Origin: Caldisericia bacterium
GTDB taxonomy: Bacteria > Caldisericota > Caldisericia > JAAYUI01
Length of the DNA stretch: 64,000 bases
Direction of reading: 5' to 3'
Assembly (NCBI GenBank): GCA_963674785.1
Contig: OY771555.1
Span: forward strand, 1,952,001 to 2,016,000
Shown here: positions 553 through 60,088 of the stretch, piece by piece
Layout: every line of letters begins with the position of its first letter
Position numbering within the stretch: position 1 is the stretch's first letter
Translations under genes and position numbers: made by a program
The notes under the pieces: model-generated
Seen by the model: the letters and a program-made list of their open reading frames with translations, nothing else
Told to the model about the DNA's origin: nothing
Databases searched by the model: none

Positions 553-580
553 TTAAAACCCATATAACAACCAATAATAT
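553..580 (+). promoter_or_regulatory. Candidate promoter of surface-protein array (TTAAAA-N16-TAATAT)
   Basis: Fits the 16-bp-spacer pattern seen across the window; weak -35; overlaps an imperfect inverted repeat at 524-556. Confidence 0.4.
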
Positions 581-610
581 TAGCATATTGAAAATTTAGG
601 GGGTGGTTGC

Positions 611-3586
611 ATGAAAAATAAATCGAATTGTTTAAACCCGAAACATTTTTTTGTCATCCTTTTATCAGTGTTTTTATTGATAACATTTTCCGGCATCCCC
701 GACTCAGCCGCTATTCTTGGCCCAGTTCATGTTGAAATGAATATCACAGCAGAAAGGCTCGGGGCATCAAGAGCTAACTCAGCAACATCATTTAAGATTT
801 ACATGCGACTCAATGAAAACATCGAAGTGAACGATTGGATCAAGGTTTGGTTTCCAATTGATGAAGCTTCATGTAATCCTGAAGATATCTGCGATGGGCC
901 TCTTGAAATCAAAGGTGAAGGTCTGGAACACCCGAGATTTGTTCCAAATGAAAAGTATTTTGAAAAATATCCAGAATCAGATGAGAAAGAGTTCACGAAA
1001 CTTTATGAAATCTTGGATGAATACACAGCAGAAGCAAGATTTTATGAATGCTCGGATTGCGATGATATTGAGGGAAAATGTCGAATAGTTCAAGATCCAT
1101 CCGGACTTGGATGTTGGATCATGGGAACAGTTTTACCAATACTACCGAAAGATGACCAAGAACGATTTTATCGAATAAACCAACTGGAATATTTAACTAG
1201 TATTGGATATTCTCCTTGTGGTGCTTGTGGACAAGGAGGTCTAAAACTTATCCAAACATGGAATGAAAGGTCTCTTCAGGCTAACTCAACCGTAAGCGTT
1301 GACGCCTGGAGACAAGGTTATAACCCAATTGATTATAACATATCAAAACGCACTGGAATCATAACTCCTGCAACACCGGGAAGATATCGTTTAAAGATTG
1401 CAACAAAGGCTGAGCCAACACCTGTTGAATCAGACTCATTTGTACTTCCCTGTTCAGAAATCACAAAACCGTTATTTACCTATGAAAGATACGCAAAGAA
1501 GGAATATGGAACATATTCAATTGATTTTGGTGTTGGTGAGGGTGGGGCACTTGATAAAGGTCGATCGAAAATAGCACTAGATTTCCCAGAATGTGTAAAC
1601 ATAAAAAAGGGATACTCACTCTACAAACATTTCAGTGTAAATGGTGTTCAAAGAAACTACAAAGACTCAGTCTTTGAGTTTGATGAGAAAAACAACATCG
1701 TATCATTTATAAGTCCTGTTGATATTGACAATATGGGTCATGTAACCATAACAATTGACGGAAAGCTATTTGAAAACAGTTGTGAAGAGCCATTTACTGT
1801 TTTTGTATCAACCAGCTCTGAACCAGAATTCATCGAATCCACACCACTTGAGATAACAATCATCGAGCCATATTTGGTTGAGATTTCAAATATATTCTTG
1901 AGTAATTATAGAGCGACAATGCCAACATCATTCGAATTCACGCTTGTACCTGACTTAGACGTCAAAGTAAATTCTGGTGATGAGATTGAAATACGACTAC
2001 CCGAGGGAACAATCCTACCTGAAAATCCAGGTATTGAAAAAATCAAATCTTCTCCGAATAAAATAACAAACATAAGGATTGATGATTCAACGGTTTTCTT
2101 GACCTTCGATGAGGACTTCAAATACCCAATACAAAACACAATTACTTTTGAAGAAGACTTTGGAATCATCAATACCAACAAACCAGATATATACAAACTA
2201 GAAGTAAAAATTTCTGGATCAGAAAAAGTATCATATTCAGAACCATTTACAATTCAAACACCCCCACTCATTACTGAACTCAAACTCCTCGACCCTGATG
2301 AACCTGATGGATGTGGTGGTTGGTATAGGACTCCACCAGTACTCTCACTTAAGTGCAGAAACCCAGATGCAAAAATCAGACTTTGGTATGATGACGATCC
2401 ACTTGATAAAGCAATTGTATACTCAGGACCAAAAAGACTTCACCCAGGCTCACAGAGACCAATCATTCACTTTCAAGCGATATATGGTGATGAGCTTGAA
2501 GAGCCACAAAGTATGCAGTTATTTATAGATACTGTCCCACCAGCAATTAAAACCATGCAACCCGGCGATGAAGTTGTATATACAAGCAAAGATTCTTTTA
2601 CGATTACGGGTAAGAGGGATTTTATCGAGATGCTTACAAATGGAGGGCCATCTCACCAGGTTGCGGATGGAGTACTCATCAAGGTTAATGATGGTGAGTA
2701 TACACAGATAATTGAACCAGAAATCTTTGCAGTCGCAGATAGAGACAGTGTTGAGTCAGAATGGGAACATGAAGTAGAACTTGTTGAAGGTGAAAACATT
2801 GTCACAATTCTTGGTCGTGACCAGGCATGTAATGAAGAGACATGGGTCAGAACAATCATCAGAGATACAACCGTTCCATACCTTGAATTATTTGGCTTAG
2901 TGGAGGGCGAAAGAGTTGAAAGAGAAAGCCCCATCAGATTTAGAGTCAAATCTGAATCAGATGCAATTGTTTATATAAACAAAGAAATCGCATCCATTGA
3001 AAAAGACTTGGGTGACGGAACATCGATTTTTTATGTTGACCTTGTTGTTCCAAAACATGACACAAGTATTACAATTCACGCTGAATCGATAGATAAAGCA
3101 AATAATTCCAACAGTATTATGGCAATATACTGGATAAATTATACACCGATAAGACTCAAGCTATGGATAAACTCTGCAAAGTTTTTCAAAAATGATGAGC
3201 AGATATCTGACCTCGACCCAATGCCGACAACAAAATCTCCACCTCTTCCAAAAGCCCTTGGAGGAAATACCTACATGCCAGTTCGATCGGTTCTTGAAGC
3301 AATTGGCGCAGATATTGAGTGGATAGGTGATGAAAGAAGAGTAGACATCAAATTAGGAGATGTCTCTCTTCAGCTTTGGATTGATAATCCGATTGCAAAG
3401 ATTAATGGCTTGGACAAAAAAATCGTTAGTGCAGATGGCAAGACTCAACTCTACCCAACAATCGTAAATGATAGAACCATGCTTCCATTGAGGTTTGCTG
3501 TTGAAACAGTAGGAGCTGATGTTAACTGGATTGCTGATGAACAGGCAATTGAGATTGTTTATCCATCGGACACTGTGGGGGATTAG
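611..3586 (+). CDS. Exported surface protein paralog 1 (991 aa): Cys-rich N-module, Ig-like repeats, C-terminal stalk domain
   Basis: Signal peptide; GPVHV...WFP...PRFVPNEKYF...WIMGTVLP...CGAC...AWRQGYNPID...AEPTPVESDSF module; DTxPP Ig linkers; C-terminal GNTYMPVR/DRTMLPLRF. Confidence 0.85.
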   Translation: MKNKSNCLNPKHFFVILLSVFLLITFSGIPDSAAILGPVHVEMNITAERLGASRANSATSFKIYMRLNENIEVNDWIKVWFPIDEASCNPEDICDGPLEIKGEGLEHPRFVPNEKYFEKYPESDEKEFTKLYEILDEYTAEARFYECSDCDDIEGKCRIVQDPSGLGCWIMGTVLPILPKDDQERFYRINQLEYLTSIGYSPCGACGQGGLKLIQTWNERSLQANSTVSVDAWRQGYNPIDYNISKRTGIITPATPGRYRLKIATKAEPTPVESDSFVLPCSEITKPLFTYERYAKKEYGTYSIDFGVGEGGALDKGRSKIALDFPECVNIKKGYSLYKHFSVNGVQRNYKDSVFEFDEKNNIVSFISPVDIDNMGHVTITIDGKLFENSCEEPFTVFVSTSSEPEFIESTPLEITIIEPYLVEISNIFLSNYRATMPTSFEFTLVPDLDVKVNSGDEIEIRLPEGTILPENPGIEKIKSSPNKITNIRIDDSTVFLTFDEDFKYPIQNTITFEEDFGIINTNKPDIYKLEVKISGSEKVSYSEPFTIQTPPLITELKLLDPDEPDGCGGWYRTPPVLSLKCRNPDAKIRLWYDDDPLDKAIVYSGPKRLHPGSQRPIIHFQAIYGDELEEPQSMQLFIDTVPPAIKTMQPGDEVVYTSKDSFTITGKRDFIEMLTNGGPSHQVADGVLIKVNDGEYTQIIEPEIFAVADRDSVESEWEHEVELVEGENIVTILGRDQACNEETWVRTIIRDTTVPYLELFGLVEGERVERESPIRFRVKSESDAIVYINKEIASIEKDLGDGTSIFYVDLVVPKHDTSITIHAESIDKANNSNSIMAIYWINYTPIRLKLWINSAKFFKNDEQISDLDPMPTTKSPPLPKALGGNTYMPVRSVLEAIGADIEWIGDERRVDIKLGDVSLQLWIDNPIAKINGLDKKIVSADGKTQLYPTIVNDRTMLPLRFAVETVGADVNWIADEQAIEIVYPSDTVGD

Positions 3587-3594
3587 ATGAAAAA
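2281..3594 (+). repeat. Degenerate direct repeat copy 1 (3' half of paralog 1)
   Basis: Aligns with 5257-6570 at a constant offset of 2976; near-identical blocks alternate with divergent patches. Confidence 0.85.
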
Positions 3595-6562
3595 AAATAT
3601 TTCTATTTTTTTGATTGCGATTATACTTTTGAGCTTTTCTGGAATCAAACCAACACTTGCCAATCTTGGCCCTGTCCATGTTCAGCTAAACATCACAGGT
3701 GAAAAACCAGGTAATGCAAGAGCAAACGCTGTCAATTCATTTATCATCTATGTTAGGTTCAATGTAGATATCGAGGCCCACGACTGGGTAAAGGTATGGT
3801 TTCCAACATATGAAGCTTCATGGGATGAGGAAGATATTTGTGATGGACTTCCTGAAATCAGAGGGGTTGGATTAGAGCATCCTAGGTTTGTCCCAAATGA
3901 AAAATATTTTGAAATATATAAAAATCAGGAAGAATTCGAAATCGGTAAACTCTACAAGATTTTAAATGAACACGATGTGGATACTGACTTTTATGAGCCA
4001 ACAGATTGCAAAGAGCTGAGTGAAAACTGCAGACTTAGAGCAGACCCCTCTGGTCTTGGATATTGGTTGATGGGAACGGTAATGCCATCTCTACCAAAAG
4101 ATCAATCAGATAGAAAAGAAAGAACCGCCCAAATAATATATACAACATATTTTGCGTACCCAACTTGTAGTGAATGCCAGGGATATCCAATAATGGTTCA
4201 AACCGAAAATGAGTGTTCATTCCAAAAAAATTCATATGTTGGAATTGAGGCATGGAGATCAGGGTACAATCCAATTGACTATCATTTCTCTAAGGCAACG
4301 GGAATCATTGCGCCTGCAACACCCGGAAGATATCGAATTAGAGTTGCAACCCAAGGCGAACCAACACCGGTTGAATCAGACTCATTTGTCCTTCCATGCT
4401 CTCAAATTTCGCAACCTGTTTTTGAATGTTATGAAAACTTCTTTGATAAAAAGAAGATTTATAATATCACCTTTGAAACAGGAGAGGGTGGTGCACTTGA
4501 TGCTGGAAACTCATTGATAAAAATCAAACTTCCTGAAGGACTCACTGCACCCAAAAAAACCCGCGGTAGGGAAGTTTTAGTCAATGGTGTACGTTGTAAA
4601 GCCGACATCAGATCAGAAACCTCTGAGGAAGGTACAATTGCCACAATCATCCCCTCCGTAAATGTTTCAAATCTAGGCTACGTGGAAATCACATTCTTTG
4701 ATAGTTTTTTCGGACATCATCTGACAGAAAGTGATGGTATCGAGGTTTTAACATCATCAGAGCCTGAATGGGTTAGCTCAGACAGTTTAATCTTTACACA
4801 CAAAGACCCATCAAAATTCATGATTGAAGATATTGTACTATCAAACAGCATTGGTTCTTATAAATCATCATATTTACTGAAGCTACTGTTTAATGATGAT
4901 TATGTAATCCCAAAAACAGACACAGTAGAGATTGATTTTCCAACTGGCACAATATTCCCAAAAGAACCGGATTCGGAATTTGTCAAAATCACACAAGGGA
5001 CAAAAAATGAATCAGGAAACATCAAAGACGGCAAGAATATTTTTGTGAAATCTTGCGAAACATCTGGCACAACAATCAAATTGATTTTGGGAAAAGAGCA
5101 TTATTTTTCCGATTATGTTGAAATCGAATTCATGGAGGATTTTGGGATAATCAATTCTGCAGAAAGAATCATCAAAAAGATGAAAGTCACAATTGCAGAC
5201 CACTCTGAAGAATCTGATTTCATTGAACTTTTACCACCTCCACTTGAAACCACACTCAAATTCCTCGACCCTGATGAACCAGACGGATGCAATGGATGGT
5301 ACAAAACTCCACCAGTATTATCTCTTTCATGCAGAAACCCAGATGCAATAATCAGAGTCTGGTATGATAACGATCCAATTGATAGAGCAATCATGTACTG
5401 GGAGCCAAGAAGACTTGCACCAGGTTCACAGAGACCAATCATTCACTTTCAAGCGATATATGGTGATGAGATTGAGGAGCCACAAAGTGTGCAGTTATTT
5501 ATAGATACTGTCCCACCAGCAATTAAAATCATGCAACCCGGCGATGAAATTGTATATACAAGCAAAGATTCTTTTACGATTACGGGCAAGAGGGATTTCA
5601 TCGAGATGCTTACAAATGGACAAACATATCATCAGGTTGCAGATGGAGTGTATATATCGAATAATCATGGTGAATATATTGAAATCTTGGAACCAACAAT
5701 CTTCAATGTGTTTAACCCTGAAGGAATCGCACAGGAATGGGAACATGAAGTAGAACTTGTTGAAGGTGAAAACATCATCACAATCCTTGGTCGTGACCAG
5801 GCATGTAATGAAGAGACATGGGTAAGAACGATCATCAGAGATACAACCGTTCCATACCTTGAATTCATCAGTCCAATTAAAGGTGAAAGATTAGAAAAGG
5901 ATAGCTTGGTTAGAATCAGAGTCAAATCTGAATCAGATGCAATTGTTTATATAAACAAAGAAATCGCATCCATTGAAAAAGACTTGGGTGACGGAACATC
6001 GATTTTTTATACTGAACTAATAATCCCAAAACAAGATACAATGATTACGATTTTAGCAGAGGCAACAGATAGAGCAAACAACGAAAGCTCTCATATGGCA
6101 GAGTTTTGGATTGATTACTCACAAACAAAACTCAAGCTATGGATAGACTCTGAAAAGTTTTTCAAAAATGATGAGCAGATATCTGACCTCGACCCAATGC
6201 CAACAACAAAATCTCCACCTCTTCCAAAAGCCCTTGGAGGAAATACCTACATGCCAGTTCGATCGGTTCTTGAAGCAATTGGCGCAGATATTGAGTGGAT
6301 AAGCAGCGAAAGAAGGGTAGATGTTAAGCTTGGGGATATAACACTTCAACTTTGGATTGATAATCCTGTTGCGAGAATAAATGGTTTGGACAAAAAAATC
6401 GTTCGTGCCGATGGAAAAACCCCACTCTACCCTACCATTGTAAATGATAGAACGATGCTTCCACTTAGATTTGCCTGTGAATCAGTAGGTGCAGATGTTA
6501 ACTGGATTGCAGATGGACATGCAATCGAGATTGTTTATCCATCGGACACTGTGGGGGATTAG
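3587..6562 (+). CDS. Exported surface protein paralog 2 (991 aa), same architecture as paralog 1
   Basis: Signal peptide; same N-module (CSECQGYP); C-terminal ~435 aa highly similar to paralog 1; TAG-ATG abutment with the previous gene. Confidence 0.85.
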   Translation: MKKNISIFLIAIILLSFSGIKPTLANLGPVHVQLNITGEKPGNARANAVNSFIIYVRFNVDIEAHDWVKVWFPTYEASWDEEDICDGLPEIRGVGLEHPRFVPNEKYFEIYKNQEEFEIGKLYKILNEHDVDTDFYEPTDCKELSENCRLRADPSGLGYWLMGTVMPSLPKDQSDRKERTAQIIYTTYFAYPTCSECQGYPIMVQTENECSFQKNSYVGIEAWRSGYNPIDYHFSKATGIIAPATPGRYRIRVATQGEPTPVESDSFVLPCSQISQPVFECYENFFDKKKIYNITFETGEGGALDAGNSLIKIKLPEGLTAPKKTRGREVLVNGVRCKADIRSETSEEGTIATIIPSVNVSNLGYVEITFFDSFFGHHLTESDGIEVLTSSEPEWVSSDSLIFTHKDPSKFMIEDIVLSNSIGSYKSSYLLKLLFNDDYVIPKTDTVEIDFPTGTIFPKEPDSEFVKITQGTKNESGNIKDGKNIFVKSCETSGTTIKLILGKEHYFSDYVEIEFMEDFGIINSAERIIKKMKVTIADHSEESDFIELLPPPLETTLKFLDPDEPDGCNGWYKTPPVLSLSCRNPDAIIRVWYDNDPIDRAIMYWEPRRLAPGSQRPIIHFQAIYGDEIEEPQSVQLFIDTVPPAIKIMQPGDEIVYTSKDSFTITGKRDFIEMLTNGQTYHQVADGVYISNNHGEYIEILEPTIFNVFNPEGIAQEWEHEVELVEGENIITILGRDQACNEETWVRTIIRDTTVPYLEFISPIKGERLEKDSLVRIRVKSESDAIVYINKEIASIEKDLGDGTSIFYTELIIPKQDTMITILAEATDRANNESSHMAEFWIDYSQTKLKLWIDSEKFFKNDEQISDLDPMPTTKSPPLPKALGGNTYMPVRSVLEAIGADIEWISSERRVDVKLGDITLQLWIDNPVARINGLDKKIVRADGKTPLYPTIVNDRTMLPLRFACESVGADVNWIADGHAIEIVYPSDTVGD

Positions 6563-11402: not shown

Positions 11403-14400
11403 TTAAGATATTGCTTTCTCAACCACATGATGTTTGAAATCTCTTGTTTAGCATTCAACACTTGCCAAATAAACTCTGCGCCAAAGAGCATCTTCTCAAT
11501 TTCTTCTTTTCTGTCCTTCACGGATTTGACTGCAAGGTGATTGTATAGACCAGCAAGATGAACAAATATATTCGATGTGTATATCAGATTCTCTCTTATT
11601 GACTCATTTCTTAGCTGCGCCAGGTAATGATTGATCAAAGAAGTAAGGTCTTCCAATTTTGTTTGACCCAACTTCAAATTGAGAATACTGATACAAAGAT
11701 CAAATCGGTTTTTGTAAAGAAGTGGAAGCTTAACATCCATCAACTTAATCAAAGCATCTCTTATCTTTAAAAAAACCGAATCCTCAAATTCAATTTTTGG
11801 AATTGTCAAAAAATGATATGAAGTATCGATTATTAATCCGGGTTGCTTTAATTCTAGTGACTCATTAAACGATGACAGAAAATCTGAATAGGCAATTTTT
11901 TCATTCCCTGAATAGAATTCAGATGAGCCCTCAATAAGTTTTGCAACAACTCTCTTTGGTGCATTAAATTCTTGAGATGAATCGTTCATCAATCTAGCAG
12001 CATCAATTTTTGCTTCAATAAGTCTACCCTGCGCCAAATGAATCAAATCTGAAAAGTAATCGATCATCACATTTGATGCAGAGATATTTTTTCTTTCAAA
12101 TCTTTTTGATGTTTGCTTTTTTAAATCCAATAGCTCATCCCATCTACCCAAATAATAATATAACCTACTAACCAGAGCATTTGTTAGAGGACTCTTAAAA
12201 CCTTTATAAAGACCTCTTTCGTTTGTCTCAATAATCAGAGAAAGGGAATCAGAGATTTTTCCTTCAGCATAGCTAAAAACAGACTTAACTCTTGCAATCC
12301 AATTTCTCTCAGAGTTGATACTTCTTTCTGTTGCAAGGTTTTCCAGAGAGATAAGTTCCTTCTTTGCTTCGTCTATCTCCAAAAGATCAATTAAAGAGCT
12401 GATCATAATTTTTGAAATACCTATTGTGTTATATCCACCGGTTTTTAAGCTGTAGTATCTAGCTTCTTTGATTGCATCATGCACGGCAATTACATTAGAT
12501 TCAGCAATACCAATCATAGCTTGGGCATAATAAATCTGGGCACTAAACTCATCAATATTCAAATATCTTACCTTCGTAATCAACCTTTTGATGATTTTTT
12601 TTGCATCTTCCAACTCACCAGATAAAACCCTTAGAATAGTAAGAACAATTCCAGCTGCTGTTGAAGAGGCATTTTTTTCACTCTTATATTTCCCAATAAT
12701 CAGCTTTGCTTCTTTTGATTTGCCAATCTTTTGTAAATGCATTGAGTCAGCGATATCTTGAATCAATTGCCATATCCTAAACTCTGTATGATTTTTCAAA
12801 CAAGCGATTTTATGATCTATCTCGTCTCTTGATAAACTCATTTCGTAAATCTGATACCATAAATAATGTATAAAATATGCAACAGACCTATATTGTTCAC
12901 CAGATTTTAGGAAATGGAGACCAACATCAAAAACAAGTTCCGAATCGACAATTTTTGACTCCAAGATTCGATTTGCATGTTCAAGCTCCATCATCGACTT
13001 GATATTATCAGCAATCCTTGCAATTACCGAGGTTCTCAAAATCTCTATATTAAACGAGTATTCCTCTTCTAAACCCTTTTTATGAGTTGAAATCAATCTT
13101 CTTTTTTTGAGTTCCTCGATGCCCGACAAAATATCAAAATCTGGTATTTTTAAACTTTTCCTAATACTCTCTTTTGACAAAGTGCTTGCAGTAGAACCCA
13201 AAGCCAAAAAACCCAGTATTATCGATGCTTTATCAGAAATCCCCATCAAAGAAACACTTATCGAAGGTAAGTAATCAGGATTTGTGAATATCCCCTCTTT
13301 TTCATCATATTTGATAAAGTCTTCCTCAAAAAAAATGGCTTCTTCCTGTACCATCAATCTGAGGAGTTCAAGTGTAAAAAGAGGGTTTCCTTTGCAATAT
13401 TTGATTATATCAAAATAGAGCTTAGAAGGAATATTTTTTGTTCCAAGACAGGCTTGGATAAACTTAATGTAAGTTGAGCCTTCTAGCACATCCAAATCAA
13501 AATATTCGACCTTCCCTTTTAAATCTAGAACAGCGGAATAGTCATCTGCCAAAATATCAGAAGATACAAGCAAAAAAACATTGTCCAGCTCGAAAACAAG
13601 GCTGAAAAAAGAATTCATTGAAACAGAATCAAACAAATGAAAATCATCAATGACAATGGTCACCTTCTCCTTAAAACTTTTTATAAACTCCCTTACACTA
13701 GCAACAATCTCAGCGATATATGACTCTTTACGTTTGTCATCCACCGAAGATAAAACTTCCCTATAATCAATAAATCTTGTGTAATCAGGATTCAATTGGG
13801 AAAGCTCAAATATTACCTGTATTAACCCAGACCCATCATATGAAACAGAATTAGCAAAACCCCTTGCTCTTATAACCAAGCTTCTATTTAGAAACAATCT
13901 CAGTGATACTTCCTCTAAAAGCCTAGATTTTCCAAATCCAAAAGGCGCCCTAACCATAACAATTTCTGAAGAGGTTGATTCATCCCAAATCTTTTGAATA
14001 TTTCTGATCTCCCAACCTCTTCCAATTAACTCTGGTTCACAAATACTTATACTCTTTTGAAAATCTTTTGAAATACTCTCTGTTTTAATTGATTGTAAAA
14101 TATCAACTACTTCCTCAATCTTGGCAGGTCGTTCATCCATATTCTTACTAAGAAGTTTGACAATCAAGTTGCTCAAAGATTTAGGAACAGGAATAGTACT
14201 TTTTGAAAAATCATACACACTTTCATCGCCTGATCCGAAAGCCATTTTCTTTAGATTGGTAACCTCAAATGGGAATTTCTCCGTTAACACATGGAACATT
14301 GATGCGCCCAAAGAGTATAAATCTGATCGAAAATCTACCCCGTACTTCAGCAACAACTCTGGGGCCATAAAGTTTAACGTCCCAATTATCATCCCTTGGG

Positions 14401-14899: not shown

Positions 14900-14906
14900 T
14901 GCATCT

Positions 14907-14934
14907 ATTTTATAACAAGAAATATGTACGTCAA
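14907..14934 (-). promoter_or_regulatory. Kinase promoter TTGACG-N16-TAAAAT, likely leaderless
   Basis: -10 ends 7 nt before ATG 14899; no SD. Confidence 0.7.
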
Positions 14935-14937
14935 ATC

Positions 14938-14965
14938 TTGACATAATATGCAAAATGATTATCAT
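14938..14965 (+). promoter_or_regulatory. rpsF operon promoter TTGACA-N16-TATCAT
   Basis: Perfect -35 and TAnnnT -10; back-to-back with the kinase promoter. Confidence 0.75.
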
Positions 14966-15006
14966 TACTGCACTTGTAAGGAAATTTTTAAAAAGAATTT
15001 TCTTCT

Positions 15007-15079
15007 GGTCGAACAATATGTTCAAGTGATTCGACCCAAAATTGCCCAATTAATGGGTATTTGTCCGAAGGAGGAATTA
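15007..15079 (+). promoter_or_regulatory. Candidate S6:S18 ribosomal protein leader
   Basis: GGTCGAA..TTCGACC stem; GCCCA-ATTAA-TGGGT hairpin; CCG immediately before AAGGAGG SD upstream of rpsF. Confidence 0.5.
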
Positions 15080-15977: not shown

Positions 15978-15999
15978 TTCATGAAAGGAGCAACCATAT

Positions 16000-16260: not shown

Positions 16261-16272
16261 GGGAGAGTAGAT

Positions 16273-16731: not shown

Positions 16732-16750
16732 GATTTACGAGAAATAATTC

Positions 16751-17522: not shown

Positions 17523-17536
17523 AGTAAGACCTCCTT

Positions 17537-48978: not shown

Positions 48979-51900
48979 CACATTAGTGTACTGTGCATTT
49001 ACAGGTTCTGGTGCGGTTTCTGCGGATGTAACAGCAACGTTTGTGAGTCTTGTTCCTTTTTCAAGATGACCAACAGTAACTCTTACTGATATTGTAAATG
49101 ACTCATATGGGTCAAGATTTCCATCATCACTGATTGAGGTTGTCCACATGTTGTCGCCTAAATCTGGTGGTGGATTTGCATCGAGGAATGTTACACCCTG
49201 TGGATAGTTTTCGGTAACAATTACATTCTGCTGAGTAAATGGAGTATCGTTGGAAACTGTAATTGTATATGTAATAACTGAATCTGGGAGAACTGTGTCG
49301 GTTGGATATGCAGTCTTTTCAATTGAGAGTGATGGAATGATTGGAACCTGAAGAAGATGCATAATGTGTGCTCCGCCTTCTTCTTCGGTGGTTGGATATT
49401 TTGGCTGTGGATGTGGAGCACTTGGGTAGGCTGCACCTGTTACAGTTCCACAAGTTCTTGTTCTTGTATTCTGGTAATAATCCCAGTTACAAGATGGCTG
49501 CTGACCAGTATTCATGTTTGGAATCTCAGTTGGTACACATGGTCCAACTCCGTCAGTGAAATCAAACTCATCGGTTGGGTCAACCGTAACAAGCTCTGCA
49601 TCGCTACAAACTGCATATGGTCTATACCAAATCTCTGTATCATTACCAGCAAGATAAGAATTTTCAACATGTGTTAGTGGATCATAAAGTGGATTCACAA
49701 GTGGGTCATAAGCTGGGTCACCAAAGTCTCTCTGTTCAAGATTCCATCCCCAAGCGGAACCATCATTTGCATAATCAACATGGACATATTCATCCCAATA
49801 TGAGTCTTCAGTCCAGGCGATAGCAGTTTTGTTACCACCAAAGCTGAATGGTCTATTCCAGAACCACTGTGAGGCAAGCTGTTTACCAGCTGAATACCAC
49901 TCTGGGGCAGATGCCCTTGGGCTGAATCTATAGTCTGCTGGGAATCCAGGAGGAAGTGTTGCGGGAACGTAGTTTGGAACTGCATTTGCATTCCTTCTAT
50001 CACCAATTCTGTTTGGATCAGTATATGCCCACCATGCACCTTCTGGTGCTGGAAGTGGATTCATCCATAAGCGGTCACCTTCTGGAAGTCTGTCTGAACC
50101 AATCGCGAAGAAATCCCATTCAGGTTCCCATCGTCCCCTGTAAGCAGCTCCGCTTCCGCTATCACTTCCACATGGGTTGTTATCAGTTGATGTTCCTATA
50201 TGTGTAATATAGGCTTTTCCGCCACTATTATCATATTCCCATTCTGCGACATTCGGTGGAGTCCTAAATCCTGTAAATGTTGAAACTACATGGTTGCCTA
50301 CAGGTCTTCCTGCATCATAAGCACCATCTGAAATCATGATTCTTGAAAGTGGAAGGTTGTCGTTTTCAAAAATATAGAGAATTGCAAAACCATAGAGTCT
50401 TCCGCCACCCGACTGAGCCTGCTGATAGAGATTTGTGATATGAATATCATCATAGATATCATCGATGAATCTTGTTATATCAAATCTGAATGCGTTAAGT
50501 TCGTCTCCGCCACCACTATCACATCTTGCAGGGCTACCAGGGATTCCACCTCTGTTTGAGCCGATATATTCACCATAGCAATACTCCCATGGTGATGGGT
50601 TTATTGATTTACCTGGGTTAACAAGGATTGGTTCATGCTGCCAACCTGTTCCTGGGTTATAACCAGCATCGTTTGTGTAAAGATAAGCTGCAAGGAGATT
50701 TGAGTTTGAAGGAATATAGTCTGGTCTTGCAGTTTTGTTTGGAAGTCCATCTGTTTCTGGGATTGTGCTATCGGTTACAAACTGGCAATAATAATGTCTG
50801 CCAGATGCTGCAACAACATCGTTTGCAGAATTGTATCTGGTGGACTGAACAAGCAAAGCATGCCCAATGTTTCCAGTATATGCCGGGAGGTCCTGAACAA
50901 GCTGCTGGACTGCAGGAGCGTGCACATGCAGATAGAAAAATGGGCCTGTATTTGCGTATGAATAGGAATCAAACTCTAACCCAACACCATCAAATCGGTA
51001 AGCAATTCTGTGACTAGTAAATGTACCTCCTGGCCACGTGTCCCAATATGAACTATCAGTACCGCCACCAAGCGGGCCAACTTCCGCACCACCATCATAT
51101 GTAAAGTACATATAATCATTTGCATTTTCGCCATCACCTACAACAACAGCAGTATGGATTGCCGGACCTCTGTGTTCATCAGTCCAGTAAGTAACTGCTT
51201 CAGCTTCGTATGTTGATGGATCTCCATCTGTATCAACTGAATAAGTGATTATAAAGCCACCTTCATCTCCACCTACATTGATGAAATTGAGTCCTGCCGG
51301 GAGAGTTAAGCCGGCTTCCTGTGATGTAAGTCTGCCTGACGCTCCAAATGCAAGCCCAGGAATATTTGTGCCATATGCAGGAAGATATGTCCATGGAGGA
51401 TTACCAGAACCATCATGTGTTGGATGATACATTATGTCTGTCGTTTCATCATCATCGTCATCAATTTCAATAACTTCAATGTGAAGATCGCCTGCGATTC
51501 CCTGCTCAGCTCCACTATTTACGCCACCGGCAATTGTTTCATAAAGGAAAGGATAAGCTGGAGTAAATGAGCCCTGATCATCAGAATAATATGCACCAAA
51601 ATCACATATGAAATTTTCATTTCCGACATCAGCGGCAACATATGCAAGTCCACCATTGGGGTTTGATGGCCCACTTGGGACAAATACATGTGCCCCAGTA
51701 TGAGTTCTTACATCAAGAATGTTTTGTTTACCATACCAGATGGTTTCAAAATCTTCTTCTTCAACATTTGACTCTCCACCCATATCGATGTCATTAAACA
51801 GAACCTCTGTTGTGAACTGATTGTAAAGGGAGATATTATCATAGATACCAGCAGGGAGTACTCCCCATCCGCCACCATTCATGAACCAATAATCATAATA

Positions 51901-53166
51901 TCTTGAGTTCCAATCAGTAAAGTATGTGTCGACACCATATGTCAGTGCATTTGAGGTATCAATAATGGCTGGCGAAGTTTCTCTCCAAACCTTCCACCAA
52001 CAAGAGGCGGAAAGATTGTACCTTGTCCATGTAAGTTCCTGTGATCTGAGGTTTGTAGGTGATGTGTAGTAAAGACCACCCGAAGACTGGATTCCCGGTT
52101 GATTAAGGTTTTCATAGTTTGGAAGAGTTATTGGAACACCCCACATAAGATGCGGTCTTCTTGCGAGTTGTTTTTCAGCTGCTGTTGGCCATGGTGCACC
52201 ATAATTTGCAATATCACCAGGATCATAAGCATTTCTCTGACACCAAAGTCTTCTCGCGAGAATTGCCTGCATCTCAACCATACCCTCACCCCATGGATGA
52301 TAATATGGGTTCAATTGGTCGTATTGAGCATGAATCATCTCATGAGTAAGAGTGTCGAGTCTTCCGTTTCTGGCGCTTGTCTGCCACTGTCCGATTACTG
52401 CACCGGTTCCACTATCAATCCAATCTGGTCTATCGTCTGGGTCGGCACCATAACCGGTTGGCATATGAATTTCGGCTTCCCAGCCACCAACACCATCAGG
52501 AATTGAGGTTCTGTAGAAAGCAGCTACACCAACGCCAGGACCGTTGTCTCTTACAAACGAAATTGACTGGCTATTGAATGGTGAACCGAATACGTCAGCA
52601 ATACAATCCTCCATTCCAACAACAATACCGTTTCCACCACCTTCAACAAAAAACTCAATATTTGGCATCTCAGATGTGCAATCCCATCTTGGATCATTTG
52701 GCCCAAGGGAACCTGAGGTATCACAGGTGTAGTCCCAGTCAATATCACCAATAGGTGGAATTGCCTGCCCTACGGCGTTTAAAGCAAAAGTCTCAGTTTC
52801 TGTTTCTGGTTTGTTTCCAAGAGGTTGTCCATTTGCAATCAAAGTCACAACTGGAAGTCTTGTGCTCTCAATAGAATCTGAGAATCGATAACCAGCATTA
52901 TAGATAACATTGTTGATTCTGTTTCTGATTTCGACCCTATGTCTCTCAGAAAAATCAACAAAACCTGCTGTATGGTCATTTGGTAACAGATCGGTTACAT
53001 CAATCAAAATCTGTCCAGGATTTTCGTAAGGTCTTTCACTTTCGTCGTTGATTATAACACCATCTAGATTCACTGAATCAGAGGCGAATACAACTCCGGC
53101 GAAAGAACCAAAACCAAGCGTCAAGGACAAGAAAGCAATCATGACAAAGGAAAATACCTTCTTCAT
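48298..53166 (-). CDS. Giant secreted protein A (~1622 aa): HExxH metallopeptidase-like region, DUF3344-like region, two DUF11 repeats
   Basis: MKKVFSF signal peptide with AGGAG SD; LTHEMIHAQY...WGEGMVE; FRFDIT...YGFAILYIFEN; LSIEKTA/LTISKTS..G..I.Y.L.V.N.G...NVVLTD..P..LEY repeats. Confidence 0.8.
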   Translation of the reverse strand: MKKVFSFVMIAFLSLTLGFGSFAGVVFASDSVNLDGVIINDESERPYENPGQILIDVTDLLPNDHTAGFVDFSERHRVEIRNRINNVIYNAGYRFSDSIESTRLPVVTLIANGQPLGNKPETETETFALNAVGQAIPPIGDIDWDYTCDTSGSLGPNDPRWDCTSEMPNIEFFVEGGGNGIVVGMEDCIADVFGSPFNSQSISFVRDNGPGVGVAAFYRTSIPDGVGGWEAEIHMPTGYGADPDDRPDWIDSGTGAVIGQWQTSARNGRLDTLTHEMIHAQYDQLNPYYHPWGEGMVEMQAILARRLWCQRNAYDPGDIANYGAPWPTAAEKQLARRPHLMWGVPITLPNYENLNQPGIQSSGGLYYTSPTNLRSQELTWTRYNLSASCWWKVWRETSPAIIDTSNALTYGVDTYFTDWNSRYYDYWFMNGGGWGVLPAGIYDNISLYNQFTTEVLFNDIDMGGESNVEEEDFETIWYGKQNILDVRTHTGAHVFVPSGPSNPNGGLAYVAADVGNENFICDFGAYYSDDQGSFTPAYPFLYETIAGGVNSGAEQGIAGDLHIEVIEIDDDDDETTDIMYHPTHDGSGNPPWTYLPAYGTNIPGLAFGASGRLTSQEAGLTLPAGLNFINVGGDEGGFIITYSVDTDGDPSTYEAEAVTYWTDEHRGPAIHTAVVVGDGENANDYMYFTYDGGAEVGPLGGGTDSSYWDTWPGGTFTSHRIAYRFDGVGLEFDSYSYANTGPFFYLHVHAPAVQQLVQDLPAYTGNIGHALLVQSTRYNSANDVVAASGRHYYCQFVTDSTIPETDGLPNKTARPDYIPSNSNLLAAYLYTNDAGYNPGTGWQHEPILVNPGKSINPSPWEYCYGEYIGSNRGGIPGSPARCDSGGGDELNAFRFDITRFIDDIYDDIHITNLYQQAQSGGGRLYGFAILYIFENDNLPLSRIMISDGAYDAGRPVGNHVVSTFTGFRTPPNVAEWEYDNSGGKAYITHIGTSTDNNPCGSDSGSGAAYRGRWEPEWDFFAIGSDRLPEGDRLWMNPLPAPEGAWWAYTDPNRIGDRRNANAVPNYVPATLPPGFPADYRFSPRASAPEWYSAGKQLASQWFWNRPFSFGGNKTAIAWTEDSYWDEYVHVDYANDGSAWGWNLEQRDFGDPAYDPLVNPLYDPLTHVENSYLAGNDTEIWYRPYAVCSDAELVTVDPTDEFDFTDGVGPCVPTEIPNMNTGQQPSCNWDYYQNTRTRTCGTVTGAAYPSAPHPQPKYPTTEEEGGAHIMHLLQVPIIPSLSIEKTAYPTDTVLPDSVITYTITVSNDTPFTQQNVIVTENYPQGVTFLDANPPPDLGDNMWTTSISDDGNLDPYESFTISVRVTVGHLEKGTRLTNVAVTSAETAPEPVNAQYTNVCLGEPELTISKTSKKFLAVQGDKIKYRLKVQNVGDREAMNVVLTDMFPRELEYVSSVPAGSLGLNKITWAIGQLNPSQTYFVDLVLKLRDDIKINPGVSVINTAVATSSEGLKVQDQSVLIVYRRPDEPVTCPKPDIDVSYDGDKLCVTVDRFGGCSPYTLRITSLENDVDIIATIDRPAEEKCIDLSISTDDTIQIELQNKYAGSYFYCYKITPDSIDASEIPCP

Positions 53167-53260
53167 ACTGCACACTCCTAATTTAGTTTTTTGATGAATC
53201 AATAAGAAAGGGTGTATCTCGCGACACACGCACAAATCTTGCACATAATAACACTTTCAG

Positions 53261-53288
53261 AGTCTACCTAACTATTCAAATCTGTCAA
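53261..53288 (-). promoter_or_regulatory. Promoter TTGACA-N16-TAGACT of protein A
   Basis: Perfect -35; 16-bp spacer. Confidence 0.7.
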
Positions 53289-53363
53289 CCTTTCCCAAAA
53301 AAACATCTAGAAAAATTGAATAAAATTAAAAAAATGAGAAAATATTTCACACCCATCTTGATG

Positions 53364-54135
53364 ATATAAAACAACCCCCACCTTCTTTAGGTGGGGGTTG
53401 GGATTATCGCTTTGTACGATTTATTGGTTTATTCTGGCTTCGGTTGTTACAAGGTTATGGACAAGGTATTTCAGATGCATCTATGGAGTCAGGGGTTATC
53501 TTGTAACAGTAGAAGTAGGAGCCTGCATATTTGTTTTGTAGTTCGATCTGGATTGTGTCATCGGTTGAGATTGAGAGGTCAATGCATTTTTCTTCTGCAG
53601 GTCTGTCGATTGTTGCTATGATGTCAACATCGTTTTCAAGTGATGTGATTCTGAGGGTGTATGGGCTACATCCACCAAATCTGTCTACTGTGACACAGAG
53701 TTTGTCACCATCATATGAGACATCGATATCTGGTTTTGGACATGTTACTGGTTCATCTGGTCTTCTGTAGACTATGAGTACTGACTGGTCTTGTACTTTG
53801 AGTCCTTCGGAACTTGTTGCAACTGCAGTATTGATTACTGAGACACCTGGGTTGATTTTGATATCGTCTCTGAGTTTGAGTACGAGGTCTACGAAGTATG
53901 TCTGGCTTGGGTTAAGCTGACCGATTGCCCATGTGATTTTGTTGAGACCAAGTGATCCTGCTGGAACTGAGCTTACATATTCAAGTTCTCTTGGGAACAT
54001 ATCTGTAAGAACAACGTTCATTGCTTCTCTGTCACCAACATTTTGTACTTTGAGTCTATATTTGATCTTGTCGCCCTGAACTGCAAGGAATTTCTTTGAT
54101 GTTTTTGAGATTGTGAGTTCTGGTTCACCAAGACA
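53364..54135. repeat. 772-bp direct repeat copy 2
   Basis: Matches 48207-48978. Confidence 0.92.
53368..53400 (-). terminator. Intrinsic terminator of giant protein B
   Basis: Same hairpin as 48211-48243. Confidence 0.88.
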
Positions 54136-57100
54136 TGAGTTTTCATACTGTGCATAAGCTGGGTTTGGAGCTGTTTCAGCTGATGTGTAACAGGTGTTGA
54201 GGAGTCTTGTTCCTTTTGGAAGATGTCCAACCTGAACTCTTATAATTACTGAGAAGCTCTCATGTGGATCAAGGTTTCCATCATCACTGATCGAGGTTGA
54301 CCAAATATTTTCACCTAAATCTGGTGGTGGATTTGCATCGAGGAATGTTACACCCTGTGGATAGTTTTCAACAAGTGTTACATTTTCCTGGGTATAAGGA
54401 GTGTCGTTTGTGATTGTGATTGTGTAAGTTAGAACTGAATCTGGAAGGACAGTTCCAGTTGGATATGCAGTTTTTTCAAGTGAAAGTGATGGGACAATTG
54501 GAACCTGGAGAACAAAGGCATGTAAATGTCCTCTCTCTTCAGATTCTGGATAATATGGTGTTGGCCATGGGCCATACATAGTTGAATATCTACATCTTTC
54601 AGCGGCAGTGCTTGTGTTACAGTTTGGTGGCCAGTTATTTCCCCACTCTGTTGCAACACAAGGTCCGTTACCATCTGTGAGATCTGCTGAATAGTTGTCA
54701 CCGCAAACAAGATATGGTCTCAGGGTCACTGTGCTATCGCTACCACCGAGATAGGAGTAAATACCAGATCCAGCTGATGTTTCAGTGATATGTGGATAGT
54801 TATTCCATCCATCAAATGAACCATCCGAATTATCTTCATCATAATCAGCGTTAACGTATGTCCACCATGGGTCATCCTGCCACATAAGTGCAGTTTTTGC
54901 TGCAACGACAGTAAAGTTTTTGTTCCAGAACCATGCACAACTGAACTGTTTTCCGGTTGATGCATATGTTGGATTCATAGCTCTTGGTCCCCAATAATAT
55001 GGATCTGGGAATCCTGGAGGTCTGTTTGGTGGGTTGCTGGCATCGCTAGTGCTACCAATCCAACCTGGTGCCCACCATGCACCACCTGTTCCATCTGGGT
55101 CAGCTGGAAGTGGATTGAGCCAGAATCTATCCATAGATTTCATATCAGATCCGCATGCCCAGAAATCCCATTCTGTGTTGAATGTTCCAGCAAATCTTCC
55201 GCGTCCGTTATCAGCAGAGTTACCAATAATTCCAACATAAGCACCGGCATTTGCTTCGTCAGTTACCCACTGATCGGGATCTGGTGGGGTTCTGAAACCT
55301 GTGAAAACAGTATTTGAGTTATCACGATGGTTGTTACAAAGCCTGAGGGCTCCGTCCATAATCATAACCTGGTTGAGAGGAAGATTCTGGTTCTCGTATA
55401 TCATTACAACTTCGTAACCATATCTTTGTGGGGAACCTGGTTCAAATTCCTGATAGAGATTAGTAACTGTTATTGTATCATAGCAGCTTGTAACATAAGG
55501 TGTTATGTCAAATCTAAATGTTGACTGGGTTGATGCCCATCCACCACAAGCACAGTTATTCTCGAGGTTGCTTCGTGGTTCATTATCTTTTCCAAGGAAC
55601 TCACCAGTGCAAAGTTCTGAAGTTGGGTTTCCAGCTCTTCCGCCGTTAACAAGGATTGGAACGTGCTCGTATCCGCCAGTAATTCTTCTACCTACAGAGT
55701 TAGCATAGATGTAACACTTAACGAGTGTAGAGCCAGATGGAATGTAGTCTGGTCTGTAAACAAGATGAGTAAGGCCGGTTGGAGCTGGCTGAGCATCAGG
55801 GCTTACAAACTGGTTGAAGTAAATTCTGCTTGGCTGATATGAATAATCGGTTGACTGAGCGATCATTGCAAAACCATATCTACCGATCATTGGTGGGATG
55901 TTATTACTAAGTCGGTTGAATGAGGTCACGAACTGTTTTACATAGTAGTATGGACCAGCATTTGCGTAAGCATAGTCTGGATATGGAGCATTCTGACCCT
56001 GGAATTCATAACCAAGAATTCCACCATTAACATCATCATAGTAAGTATTGTCCTCAAAAGCACAATCTCCACCAAATCCTGCAAGAGCACTAAAGGCACC
56101 ATGATTTATATTAAATGCAATCTGGTCGGCAGTGTTCACACCACCACCAACAATGACACCAGACTGTCCACCCACATACTGTTCTTGGTTTGCAAAAAGT
56201 CCGCTGTACTCAGCTGTGGTTGTTGCAGATGTATCTTCTGCCTGGAATACTGCCTGGTAACCACCTCTTGGAAGTGGGCCACCTGGTACTGAAGTATCTC
56301 TAAAATAGAGAGCTGGTGGGAAGAAAGCTCCACCTTCAACGGAATTGATTCTTCCGGTTGCGGCAAAAGTCATGATTGTTGCACCTGAGGCAGGAACATT
56401 TGTCCATGTCGTAGCAGTTGGCCAGCCAGCACCAGTGTGTGCATCATGATAACTCACTCTAGTTGTGATATCATCACCTGGATTAAGTCCCCCACGTGCG
56501 TGTAGTGAATAGACTGTGAGGTTAAGATTTCCAGCGAGACCAATTTCGGAACCACCAGCAATTGTCTGATAGAAGTATGGTGAATTATCATTGCTGTAGA
56601 AAATACTATTTGTTGGGCCACCTGTGTAGTATGTTCCGAAGTCACAAATTCCTGACTGATCATCACCAGTTGTGTACATCTGTCCGCCAGCAGGTGTTGA
56701 TGGACCAAATGGAACATAGAGTTTTCCACCAGTATGAGTGTTTACATCAAGGACATGCTGTGCTCCATACCAAACAGTCTCATAGTCCTGATTCTCAACA
56801 AGGGTATCACCCTTCTCATTATCAAGGACAGTGGTTGTGAAACTGTTCATCAAGTCGACATCGCCTCTGATTCCTGGATAACCACCATCGCCATTTGCAA
56901 AGTAGTGATCCCAATACTCTGAGTTCCAATCAACGAAATATGTTCCAGCACCATATGTTGCACTGTTTGTGGCAGAAATAATTGCTGGAGATGTCTCTCT
57001 CCATACTTTCCACCATGTTGTTGCCGAAACGTCATATCTTGTGTTCATAAGATATGGATATCTTGGGTTTCCACCTGTAATGTCATAGAAGAATCCGCCT

Positions 57101-58128
57101 GAAGGCTGAATGCCTTCCTGGTTAAGGTTCTCGTATAATGGAAGGGTTGTTGGTACACCAAGAGCAAGTGTAGATTTGTTTGGTGGTGTATATGAGTTTC
57201 TCTGGCACCAAAGCTTTCTAGCCAAGATTGCCTGCATCTCGATCATACCTTCACCCCAAGGATGATAGTATGGATTGAGTCTATCATAATATGCGTGAAT
57301 CATCTCATGAGTAAGAGCATCAAGTCTTCCCTCACGAGCTGTAACCTGCCATGGAACACCTGTATCGTTTCCTGCTGCATCATACCAATTTGGTATTGTA
57401 TCAGGGTCATCGCTACATCCGGTTGGAAGGTCAATGTATCCGACAAAATTTCCACTTCCAATTGGTGTTTCAATTGAACTTGTATACTGAGCATAAACTC
57501 CCTGTGGAAGTCCATCGTTTCTTCTGAAGATTACAGTCTGTGTGAAGAATGGGGTTCCGAAAACATCGGTAATACAATCTTCGATACTTACTGCTACACC
57601 ATTTCCTCCACCTTCGACGAAAAACTCGATATTTGGCATTTCGACATTACAATCCCAAAGAATGCTTGGTGAGGACTGGGAAGTTCCACATGAGTTCATG
57701 AAGTCCCAATCAATATCACCAGACGGTGGGACTGCCTGGTTGACTCCGAAAAGACTGAATGTGCTCTCCCCTTCTTTTCTTTCACCAATCATCTTTCCAT
57801 CGGCAACAAGAATTACGGTTGGAGCATATATCGTCGATCCATCATCTGGAAATCTCTGGTTTGTGGTTGCCCAAGTCTGATTAATTCTACTGAGAATAAT
57901 CTCCTGGTTTCTTGGAGTCGTTAGATACCCAGCGGTGTGATCTGACACCAAATCAGTCACGTCGACGACCATAGCACCAATATTTTCTATTGGTTTTTCC
58001 TCATCTACTACAACCAACCCATCTGTTCCATCTACGGGACCAGTTGCACTTACAGATGTCACGACCATTCCAAAGACCATAAAAACGATCAGGAATGCAG
58101 CAACAGCGATGGCATATGTCTTATTCAT
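53455..58128 (-). CDS. Giant secreted protein B (1557 aa), paralog of A
   Basis: Signal peptide; LTHEMIHAYY...WGEGMIE; WWKVWRETSPAII shared with A; DUF11 repeats; identical C-terminal ~226 aa. Confidence 0.82.
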   Translation of the reverse strand: MNKTYAIAVAAFLIVFMVFGMVVTSVSATGPVDGTDGLVVVDEEKPIENIGAMVVDVTDLVSDHTAGYLTTPRNQEIILSRINQTWATTNQRFPDDGSTIYAPTVILVADGKMIGERKEGESTFSLFGVNQAVPPSGDIDWDFMNSCGTSQSSPSILWDCNVEMPNIEFFVEGGGNGVAVSIEDCITDVFGTPFFTQTVIFRRNDGLPQGVYAQYTSSIETPIGSGNFVGYIDLPTGCSDDPDTIPNWYDAAGNDTGVPWQVTAREGRLDALTHEMIHAYYDRLNPYYHPWGEGMIEMQAILARKLWCQRNSYTPPNKSTLALGVPTTLPLYENLNQEGIQPSGGFFYDITGGNPRYPYLMNTRYDVSATTWWKVWRETSPAIISATNSATYGAGTYFVDWNSEYWDHYFANGDGGYPGIRGDVDLMNSFTTTVLDNEKGDTLVENQDYETVWYGAQHVLDVNTHTGGKLYVPFGPSTPAGGQMYTTGDDQSGICDFGTYYTGGPTNSIFYSNDNSPYFYQTIAGGSEIGLAGNLNLTVYSLHARGGLNPGDDITTRVSYHDAHTGAGWPTATTWTNVPASGATIMTFAATGRINSVEGGAFFPPALYFRDTSVPGGPLPRGGYQAVFQAEDTSATTTAEYSGLFANQEQYVGGQSGVIVGGGVNTADQIAFNINHGAFSALAGFGGDCAFEDNTYYDDVNGGILGYEFQGQNAPYPDYAYANAGPYYYVKQFVTSFNRLSNNIPPMIGRYGFAMIAQSTDYSYQPSRIYFNQFVSPDAQPAPTGLTHLVYRPDYIPSGSTLVKCYIYANSVGRRITGGYEHVPILVNGGRAGNPTSELCTGEFLGKDNEPRSNLENNCACGGWASTQSTFRFDITPYVTSCYDTITVTNLYQEFEPGSPQRYGYEVVMIYENQNLPLNQVMIMDGALRLCNNHRDNSNTVFTGFRTPPDPDQWVTDEANAGAYVGIIGNSADNGRGRFAGTFNTEWDFWACGSDMKSMDRFWLNPLPADPDGTGGAWWAPGWIGSTSDASNPPNRPPGFPDPYYWGPRAMNPTYASTGKQFSCAWFWNKNFTVVAAKTALMWQDDPWWTYVNADYDEDNSDGSFDGWNNYPHITETSAGSGIYSYLGGSDSTVTLRPYLVCGDNYSADLTDGNGPCVATEWGNNWPPNCNTSTAAERCRYSTMYGPWPTPYYPESEERGHLHAFVLQVPIVPSLSLEKTAYPTGTVLPDSVLTYTITITNDTPYTQENVTLVENYPQGVTFLDANPPPDLGENIWSTSISDDGNLDPHESFSVIIRVQVGHLPKGTRLLNTCYTSAETAPNPAYAQYENSCLGEPELTISKTSKKFLAVQGDKIKYRLKVQNVGDREAMNVVLTDMFPRELEYVSSVPAGSLGLNKITWAIGQLNPSQTYFVDLVLKLRDDIKINPGVSVINTAVATSSEGLKVQDQSVLIVYRRPDEPVTCPKPDIDVSYDGDKLCVTVDRFGGCSPYTLRITSLENDVDIIATIDRPAEEKCIDLSISTDDTIQIELQNKYAGSYFYCYKITPDSIDASEIPCP

Positions 58129-58233: not shown

Positions 58234-58262
58234 AATCTATCACAAACGAAGTCGTTTGTCAA
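58234..58262 (-). promoter_or_regulatory. Promoter TTGACA-N17-TAGATT with palindromic operator in the spacer
   Basis: Extended TG; ACAAACGA-AG-TCGTTTGT inverted repeat at 58242-58259. Confidence 0.7.
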
Positions 58263-58375: not shown

Positions 58376-58403
58376 TTGACTCTAATATGCAATAAGATAT
58401 ATT
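58376..58403 (+). promoter_or_regulatory. Ferredoxin promoter TTGACT-N16-TATATT
   Basis: Hexamers read directly; 16-bp spacer. Confidence 0.65.
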
Positions 58404-60016: not shown

Positions 60017-60022
60017 AAAGCT

Positions 60023-60050
60023 ATATTAAGATAGCATTTACTTTCGTCAA
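60023..60050 (-). promoter_or_regulatory. Promoter TTGACG-N16-TAATAT, likely leaderless
   Basis: -10 is 6 nt from GTG 60016. Confidence 0.7.
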
Positions 60051-60060
60051 GCTCGTACCC

Positions 60061-60088
60061 TTGAAAGAATTAGTGATTAACATATCAT
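60061..60088 (+). promoter_or_regulatory. Promoter TTGAAA-N16-TATCAT, possibly leaderless
   Basis: 8 nt before in-frame GTG 60097; no SD. Confidence 0.6.

Follow-up and report, generated by a model that had tools for sequence, protein, structure and literature searches.

Spacers of 16 base pairs (bp) between near-consensus -35 and -10 boxes characterize stable-RNA promoters such as rrnB P1 of Escherichia coli. These form a minority, regulated and suboptimal, that has a GC-rich discriminator and is confined to rRNA and tRNA genes. Housekeeping promoters of the sigma70/sigmaA type, read by group-1 sigma factors such as E. coli RpoD and Bacillus subtilis SigA, are described differently. About 50% of canonical spacers measure 17 bp and 20% each 16 and 18 bp (PMC2613000), 17 bp predominates across species with mapped transcription start sites (49 species in PMC12641261; also PMC8407463) and the ProFinder preprint (bioRxiv 10.64898/2026.09.23.753901) reports a median spacer of 17 bp in all 49 genomes. 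The surveys thus regard 17 bp as a fixed spacing of housekeeping promoters in bacteria. Here, we analyzed predicted promoters of a Caldisericia bacterium, starting from a 64,000-nucleotide (nt) stretch (the window; positions 1952001-2016000 of contig C1 of the source genome G000, a contig of 2.23 Mb and 39% GC), in which a first-pass annotation had claimed that nearly every transcription unit carries boxes spaced by 16 instead of 17 bp. Like sigma70/sigmaA promoters, those of G000 combine TTGACA and TATAAT boxes, yet their spacer mode is 16 bp, with 17 bp as a large second class and 18 bp nearly missing. Predicted Caldisericia promoters resemble the sigma70 type but lack one of its defining features, the 17-bp mode.

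Gene models for G000 were built with our own dicodon model (1834 genes called, 1795 kept; gene starts from the same caller) and define 978 upstream regions, 23 of which lie in the window and were set aside, leaving 955 held out. In the held-out regions, pairs of TTGACA (at most one mismatch) and TAnnnT occur 25, 165, 117, and 30 times at spacers of 15, 16, 17, and 18 bp, respectively, compared with 28, 27, 27, and 25 in 20 dinucleotide shuffles. Three further box definitions yielded a distribution of the same shape, and an antisense control restricted to non-divergent regions is flat. A two-box model with the spacer left free between 13 and 21 bp assigns 0.4, 57.5, 39.9, and 1.0% of sites to 15, 16, 17, and 18 bp, in line with a fixed generic matrix (59, 40, and 1% at 16, 17, and 18 bp; share of 16 bp 0.54-0.64). 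The fitted -35 matrix is TTGACA-like (TTG at 0.99/0.93/0.89, then a/c/a) and the -10 matrix TATAAT-like (T 0.84, A 0.92, last T 0.91). Strict matches to TTGACA-N-TANNAT number 56, 17, and 2 at 16, 17, and 18 bp in non-coding DNA versus 4, 5, and 2 in coding DNA, ruling out that codon phase inflates the 16-bp counts. Eight more non-coding strict matches have 19-bp spacers, part of which overlap the -10 box of a 16-bp site, while the rest may be of MerR type; the small bump at 19 bp partly arises from such overlapping -10 boxes. The free-spacer search against shuffles that had been proposed as a check thus peaks at 16 bp, with a shoulder at 17 bp. The original wording of 16 and not 17 bp is too strong for this distribution, in which about 40% of sites are spaced by 17 bp, beside 58-59% at 16 bp and 0-1% at 18 bp. 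There is very little doubt that the shift of the modal spacer in predicted promoters is real.

Further evidence comes from start codons. These pile up 6-8 nt past the called -10 box (58/323 of the 16-bp and 41/223 of the 17-bp calls), compared with 1-4 start codons per position at 11-19 nt in the 16-bp class, the pattern expected of leaderless mRNAs. TAnnnT precedes the start codon by 6-8 nt in 128 of the 978 regions, suggesting that leaderless genes are common in G000. When these 128 regions were anchored at the start codon and no spacer model was applied, TTG was found at 15, 16, 17, and 18 bp in 1, 52, 27, and 2 cases (52 versus 27, p=0.007); with control anchors of 0-4 or 12-17 nt, the distribution was flat. 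Start codons of probably leaderless genes, which would mark transcription starts only indirectly, lie 6-8 nt after the -10 box; this resembles sigma70/sigmaA promoters, as does the presence of TG in a minority of sites.

G000 encodes one group-1 sigma factor of 489 residues, classified as such also by fold search, and other sigma4 matches are short or belong to non-sigma proteins. Box matrices of 300 16-bp and 202 17-bp calls are alike (p<0.05 at one of 12 positions), which, together with the lack of a second large sigma factor, argues against an alternative sigma regulon. The predicted sites would be working promoters, with both spacer classes presumably read by RpoD. TG at -15/-14 is present in 46/300 16-bp and 49/202 17-bp calls (Fisher p=0.015); it is enriched in the latter but a minority of either, so neither forms an extended -10 (TGn) class. 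The idea that 17-bp sites are exceptions compensated by TG was consequently dropped, as 17 bp is a large second class with TG in those 49 of 202 calls. Stable-RNA genes share the short spacer: among the 27 of 38 tRNA/tmRNA lead regions scoring above 9 bits, 17 have 16-bp, six 17-bp, and four 19-bp sites. Unlike in the rrnB P1 type, 16 bp is the majority over ordinary protein genes in G000, the discriminator is no richer in GC (0.37 versus 0.40), and the best 16S site has a 17-bp spacer. Most tRNA genes form single units that carry their own promoters, with 38 lead units among 48 genes, tRNA-Sec included, next to one 16S gene.

The strict pattern was then counted in all 93 genomes of the phylum Caldisericota, comprising class Caldisericia (families f1-f6, 84 genomes) and its sister class (f7, nine genomes), and in 32 outgroup genomes, where the 23 with at least ten matches were evaluated and nine GC-rich, sparse ones left out. 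Because related genomes share ancestry, tallies of genomes are descriptions and not independent tests. Caldisericia total 2561/1092/606 matches at 16/17/18 bp (the order used hereafter), with 16 exceeding 17 bp in 84/84 genomes and family totals of 435/210/99 (f1), 307/183/91 (f2), 1002/341/231 (f3), 529/222/74 (f4), 38/18/12 (f5), and 250/118/99 (f6). The sister class yields 60/68/54, with 16 above 17 bp in 3/9 genomes, and the outgroups 284/1473/331, with 17 above 16 bp in 22/23; the outgroup G109, for instance, gives 20/260/36. The lone exception, G113 (14 versus 12 matches at 16 and 17 bp), is at control level and was rejected as a 16-bp outgroup, since its order gives a weak signal of 509 versus 673 over 31 genomes. 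In E. coli itself, the strict pattern has 15 matches compared with 25 in the reversed control and is therefore of no use as a reference. Five genomes with a Patescibacteria-type RpoD (G112, G114, G115, G128, and G131; four labeled Patescibacteria, one Gammaproteobacteria) lean towards shorter spacers (50/121/18); their sigma tail is altered in part, and the flap tip is canonical in both genomes checked for it.

In relatives, start-codon-anchored sites are sparse (2-29 per genome), and free two-box fits to small sets (89-182 regions) failed to settle on boxes, a Firmicute control included, so that fixed-matrix fits were used. These gave 14/58/16/0 at 15/16/17/18 bp for G017 (f3, 267 regions), 58/25/5 for G014 (f3, 66 regions), and 65/20/0 for G040 (f4, 59% GC, 88 regions), compared with 20/62/12 for pooled f7 (n=298; share of 16 bp 0.11-0.33) and 13/64/14 for the Firmicute G126 (110 regions). 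The shift persists over GC contents of 28-59%. In a quick RpoB tree, 13 Caldisericia, three f7, and five outgroup sequences are each parted by a branch with full support (Shimodaira-Hasegawa-like approximate likelihood ratio test, SH-aLRT, 100), and the closest relatives of the G000 RpoD are Caldisericia/Caldisericales proteins of 80-87% identity. The comparison with related genomes suggested earlier was thus borne out: the modal shift to 16 bp is class-wide in Caldisericia, and the sister class is centered on 17 bp. The ProFinder survey agrees in that Caldisericota have the lowest 17-bp share of 67 phyla, 30.3% (confidence interval 22.3-39.3). It differs in regarding this share as not distinguishable from equal use and the canonical spacer as valid domain-wide, and the parts of the preprint covered give no 16-bp share or mechanism. 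A literature search, with subscription papers mostly outside its coverage, retrieved no report of a 16-bp mode in any lineage or of the polymerase changes described below.

Which part of the holoenzyme could move the optimum? We compared conserved columns of RpoB (13 Caldisericia versus eight f7 and outgroup sequences) and RpoD (22 of 28 candidate loci that passed an open reading frame filter, one of them labeled Calditrichota yet Caldisericia-like, versus 52 references), using E. coli numbering and scoring a column as lost if conserved in f7 and outgroups and changed in at least 90% of Caldisericia. Indels in RpoD regions 3.2-4.2, as had been suspected, are absent: 153 residues separate region 2.4 from 4.2 in 7/7 sequences, and regions 2 to 4.2 of the G000 protein are collinear with their counterparts in B. 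subtilis SigA. Changes are substitutions instead. Fourteen of 126 RpoD columns are lost, seven of them within residues 535-611, and residues changed near the C-terminus are A535, L540, V558, L595, H600, P601, L607, and L611. L540 is replaced by F/Y in Caldisericia outside f2, a family without aromatics at 539/540. The HP kink (H600/P601) is found in 0/22 Caldisericia loci versus 40/48 outgroup loci and is likewise missing in 5/5 additional RpoDs from f2, f3, and f4. AlphaFold predicts the G000 tail as one unbroken helix (462-488), whereas the f7 control is modeled as a helix, a five-residue break, and a second helix.

The partner surface has changed as well. Of 520 conserved RpoB columns, 31 are lost, and these are concentrated in the flap (12/89 versus 19/431 elsewhere; Fisher p=0.003), namely at 834, 837, 840, 845, 891, 893, 895, 899, 902, 905, 912, and 922. 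At the flap tip, this concerns G891, T893, L895, E899, L902 (replaced by W/F/Y), and I905; residues L901/L902/I905/F906 form the sigma-binding patch. A canonical tip is retained by f7 and by every outgroup examined, two Patescibacteria among them. Hence, the canonical sigma4-flap interface, consisting of the beta 891-912 helix, the HP-kinked tail, and L607/L611, is present in f7 and absent from Caldisericia, whose rewritten flap tip and sigma tail set them apart from sigma70/sigmaA systems.

The preferred spacer is reported to be set partly by sigma4-flap contact (PMC2613000), which R541C and L607P disrupt (10.1101/2022.01.24.477500). Since both surfaces changed on the same branch as the spacer, we propose that the 16-bp mode stems from a holoenzyme re-gauged via the flap tip and the sigma region 4 tail, an explanation to which we give about an even chance. 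Substitutions on the branch leading to Caldisericia would have rebuilt the interface, a predicted single helix replacing the kinked one packed on the flap tip. The new interface may dock sigma4 about half to one bp closer to sigma2, which would move the optimum to 16-16.5 bp, and promoters would then have followed this optimum by selection. In a synthetic E. coli library 16-bp spacers are as strong as 17-bp ones (PMC8695583); a small energy change could therefore suffice. More tentatively, flap tip and sigma tail might constitute a co-evolved, transplantable module that alone sets the 16-bp optimum, in which case the 17-bp rule would be tunable at one small interface, and 15- and 16-bp lineages would be independent settings.

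Several observations weigh against this proposal. It relies on one evolutionary event, and the suspected involvement of sigma region 3-4 and flap geometry, although matched by substitutions on both surfaces, remains a correlation on a single branch. The HP kink is missing from eight outgroup RpoDs whose genomes, where counted, nevertheless stay at 17 bp. In both sigma models, which were built from different constructs, the last ten residues have low AlphaFold confidence (predicted local distance difference test 56-57). Caldisericia RpoB evolves fast throughout, with long branches and 75% of conserved columns kept. Across the seven families, the 16/17 ratio is more closely tied to how far the rest of RpoB has diverged (rho -0.93, p=0.003, n=7) than to flap-tip divergence (rho -0.67, p=0.10, n=7); these correlations are based on raw counts with unequal backgrounds, and no dose-response on flap-tip divergence emerged. 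Other polymerase elements (beta' R77G, beta' 119-123, and beta 461-489) changed on the same branch, and the strength of 16-bp spacers in the E. coli library also weighs against the proposal. Fits of some genome sets show no 16-bp mode: G007 (f2, 66 regions) gave 41/44/9, G080 (f6, 74 regions) an uninformative 19/39/15 with a share of 16 bp anywhere between 0 and 0.82, and pooled loci from the rpoD neighborhood 40/40/7.

The strongest competitor, which we nevertheless regard as unlikely, is that another part (the zinc-binding domain of beta' with R77G, its zipper, the protrusion of beta, or a lineage-specific, polymerase-binding factor) re-gauged the holoenzyme, leaving the flap and sigma4 changes as bystanders or secondary. 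In RpoC, 22/454 columns are lost (columns beyond E. coli 940, where most loci stop, were left out), including 119-123 and R77G in the zinc-binding domain, the latter substituted in 13/13 Caldisericia sequences; beta' 49 is changed too, and no window of RpoB has diverged more within the class than the protrusion helix (461-489). The zipper touches spacer DNA (PMC3173786), and general RpoB divergence is what the spacer ratio tracks best. Against these points stand the enrichment of changes in the flap and the concurrent change of its sigma partner surface. A beta insertion of ~230 residues near E. coli 738-745, present in f1 and f3-f6 but absent in f2 and f7, has no Pfam match at E 0.01 (G000 residues ~670-914, L146:751-1533, minus strand; also L126-L128 and L131-L137); it was rejected as the cause because 16 exceeds 17 bp in 9/9 f2 genomes. 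As for an extra factor, G000 has no stand-alone CarD, its sole PF02559 match (C1 1916735-1916902, L251) lying inside a 1172-residue Mfd-sized frame, though CarD is missing from many 17-bp phyla too (PMC4593161).

Two observations on the rpoB-rpoC region stand apart. In 13/13 Caldisericia, but not in f7 or outgroups, a gene of 640-696 codons separates rpoB from rpoC (L126-L137; G000:C1 ~1678500-1680700), presumably EF-G-like judging by an N-terminal GTPase motif. In G088 (C58 ~13500-18000, L115), the rpoB match lies within a 2274-residue frame of about twice the usual length, through inserts or a fusion.

Alternatively, an ordinary polymerase could act on a less underwound chromosome, either relaxed or constrained in another way, where a shorter spacer restores the same angle between the boxes. 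A shorter AA/TT period marks less negative supercoiling, and the period is 10.65 bp in G000 (10.55-10.8) compared with ~11 bp (10.95) in f7, a difference of about the size needed for a 0.6-bp shift. However, the interval for f7 is broad (9.8-12.2), and in G017 the spacer shift is stronger yet the period, a weak one, is longer (11.6; 11.0-12.15). G000 lacks reverse gyrase and encodes gyrB-gyrA, including a GyrA box. As reverse gyrase is found in 10/93 genomes while 16 exceeds 17 bp in 84/84, it was discarded as the cause. The influence of spacer length on supercoiling sensitivity is small (PMC8695583). DNA topology, the other cause suggested by the first-pass annotation, is thus quite improbable. 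Still less probable is neutral drift, by which deletion bias would have shortened spacers around an unchanged optimum, 16 bp between near-consensus boxes being acceptable to a canonical polymerase. Boxes in Caldisericia are indeed near consensus, and the library equivalence of 16 and 17 bp would permit it; but outgroups equally rich in consensus promoters keep a sharp 17-bp mode (as in G109), the shift spans the whole GC range, and 15 bp is almost unused in G000. Finally, it is scarcely credible that the shift is artificial, whether caused by AT-rich DNA, by slipped register in TATAATAT runs, by codon phase, or by our gene calls: overlapping -10 boxes occur and gene starts come from our own caller, but shuffle, antisense, and coding controls are flat, the anchored test also favors 16 bp, the 59%-GC genome shows the shift, and the identical pipeline returns 17 bp for f7 and a Firmicute.

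Within the window, hexamers and coordinates of all 15 listed 16-bp sites proved correct. A matrix scan of the 23 upstream regions nevertheless revealed more exceptions than noted (best calls: 13 at 16, three at 17, four at 18, two at 19, and one at 15 bp), so that "nearly every unit" overstates the case; 13 of the 16 calls at 16 or 17 bp are 16 bp, within sampling of the genome ratio (p=0.12). Five divergent pairs of predicted promoters lie back-to-back or overlapping in very short gaps (14907-14965, 18472-18554, 28001-28087, 41677-41730, and 60023-60088). In the first, TTGACA-N16-TATCAT (14938-14965, plus strand), the best call of its region at 13.4 bits, precedes the ribosomal protein S6 gene (15080), and TTGACG-N16-TAAAAT (14907-14934, minus) serves a Ser/Thr kinase gene (open reading frame end 11399) with an in-frame ATG at 14899, 7 nt downstream. 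The second comprises TGGACA-N16-TATACT (18527-18554, plus) upstream of glutamate-semialdehyde dehydrogenase (18589) and TTGATA-N16-TAAAAT (18472-18499, minus) upstream of tatA-tatC (18453); the third, TTGTAA-N16-TAGAAT (28060-28087, plus) upstream of a thiolase (28126) and TTGACC-N16-TATACT (28001-28028, minus) upstream of a CcmA-like ABC ATPase (27966). In the fourth, TTCACA-N16-TAATAT (41677-41704, plus) faces a CCA-adding-type nucleotidyltransferase (41739) and TTGACA-N16-TAATAT (41703-41730, minus) a 3D/G5-domain gene (41676), with a 19-bp alternative nearly equal in score. The fifth consists of TTGAAA-N16-TATCAT (60061-60088, plus), 8 nt before the called polyprenyl synthase start, and TTGACG-N16-TAATAT (60023-60050, minus), 6 nt ahead of a start called at 60016. 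In the window, the genes starting at 14899(-), 34875(-), 60016(-), and 60097(+) are likely leaderless.

Among the remaining sites, TTGATT-N16-TAGAAT (20891-20918, plus) overlaps the called start at 20917, the next ATG being 22 nt downstream, and a 15-bp site at 20843 also scores highly. Upstream of gcvT, TTGATA-N16-TAAGAT (46143-46170, plus) is embedded in the preceding gene at its 3' end and falls outside the matrix-scanned regions. TTGACT-N16-TATATT (58376-58403, plus) is found upstream of a ferredoxin gene (58434). TTGACA-N16-TAGACT (53261-53288, minus) precedes a DUF11-repeat protein gene. The site TTAAAA-N16-TAATAT (553-580, plus) is weak, as had been said, and TTGTTA at 550, with a 19-bp spacer, outscores it. 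Both exceptions noted before carry TG at -15/-14 as described, TTGACA-N17-TAGATT (58234-58262, minus) and TTGACC-N18-TAGGAT (34882-34911, minus), the latter 6 nt before an ornithine-racemase-like start. The secD site (TTGACT; 34940-34969, plus), previously called ambiguous, has TAnnnT at 18 bp alone among spacers of 15-19 bp. Two tandem ~1600-residue DUF11-repeat proteins (48298-58128, minus) have their own predicted promoters, one with a 16-bp and the other with a 17-bp spacer, and two tandem 991-residue proteins (611-6562, plus) each end in a copper-amine-oxidase N-terminal domain (PF07833).

A class with 16-bp spacers, a canonical sister class, and matched interface changes make the distance setting of the polymerase directly testable, with about a dozen residues named as candidates for swaps. 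In Caldisericia, promoters will be mis-ranked by predictors whose training assumed a 17-bp prior, and the findings suggest a way of obtaining polymerases whose promoter preference is shifted.

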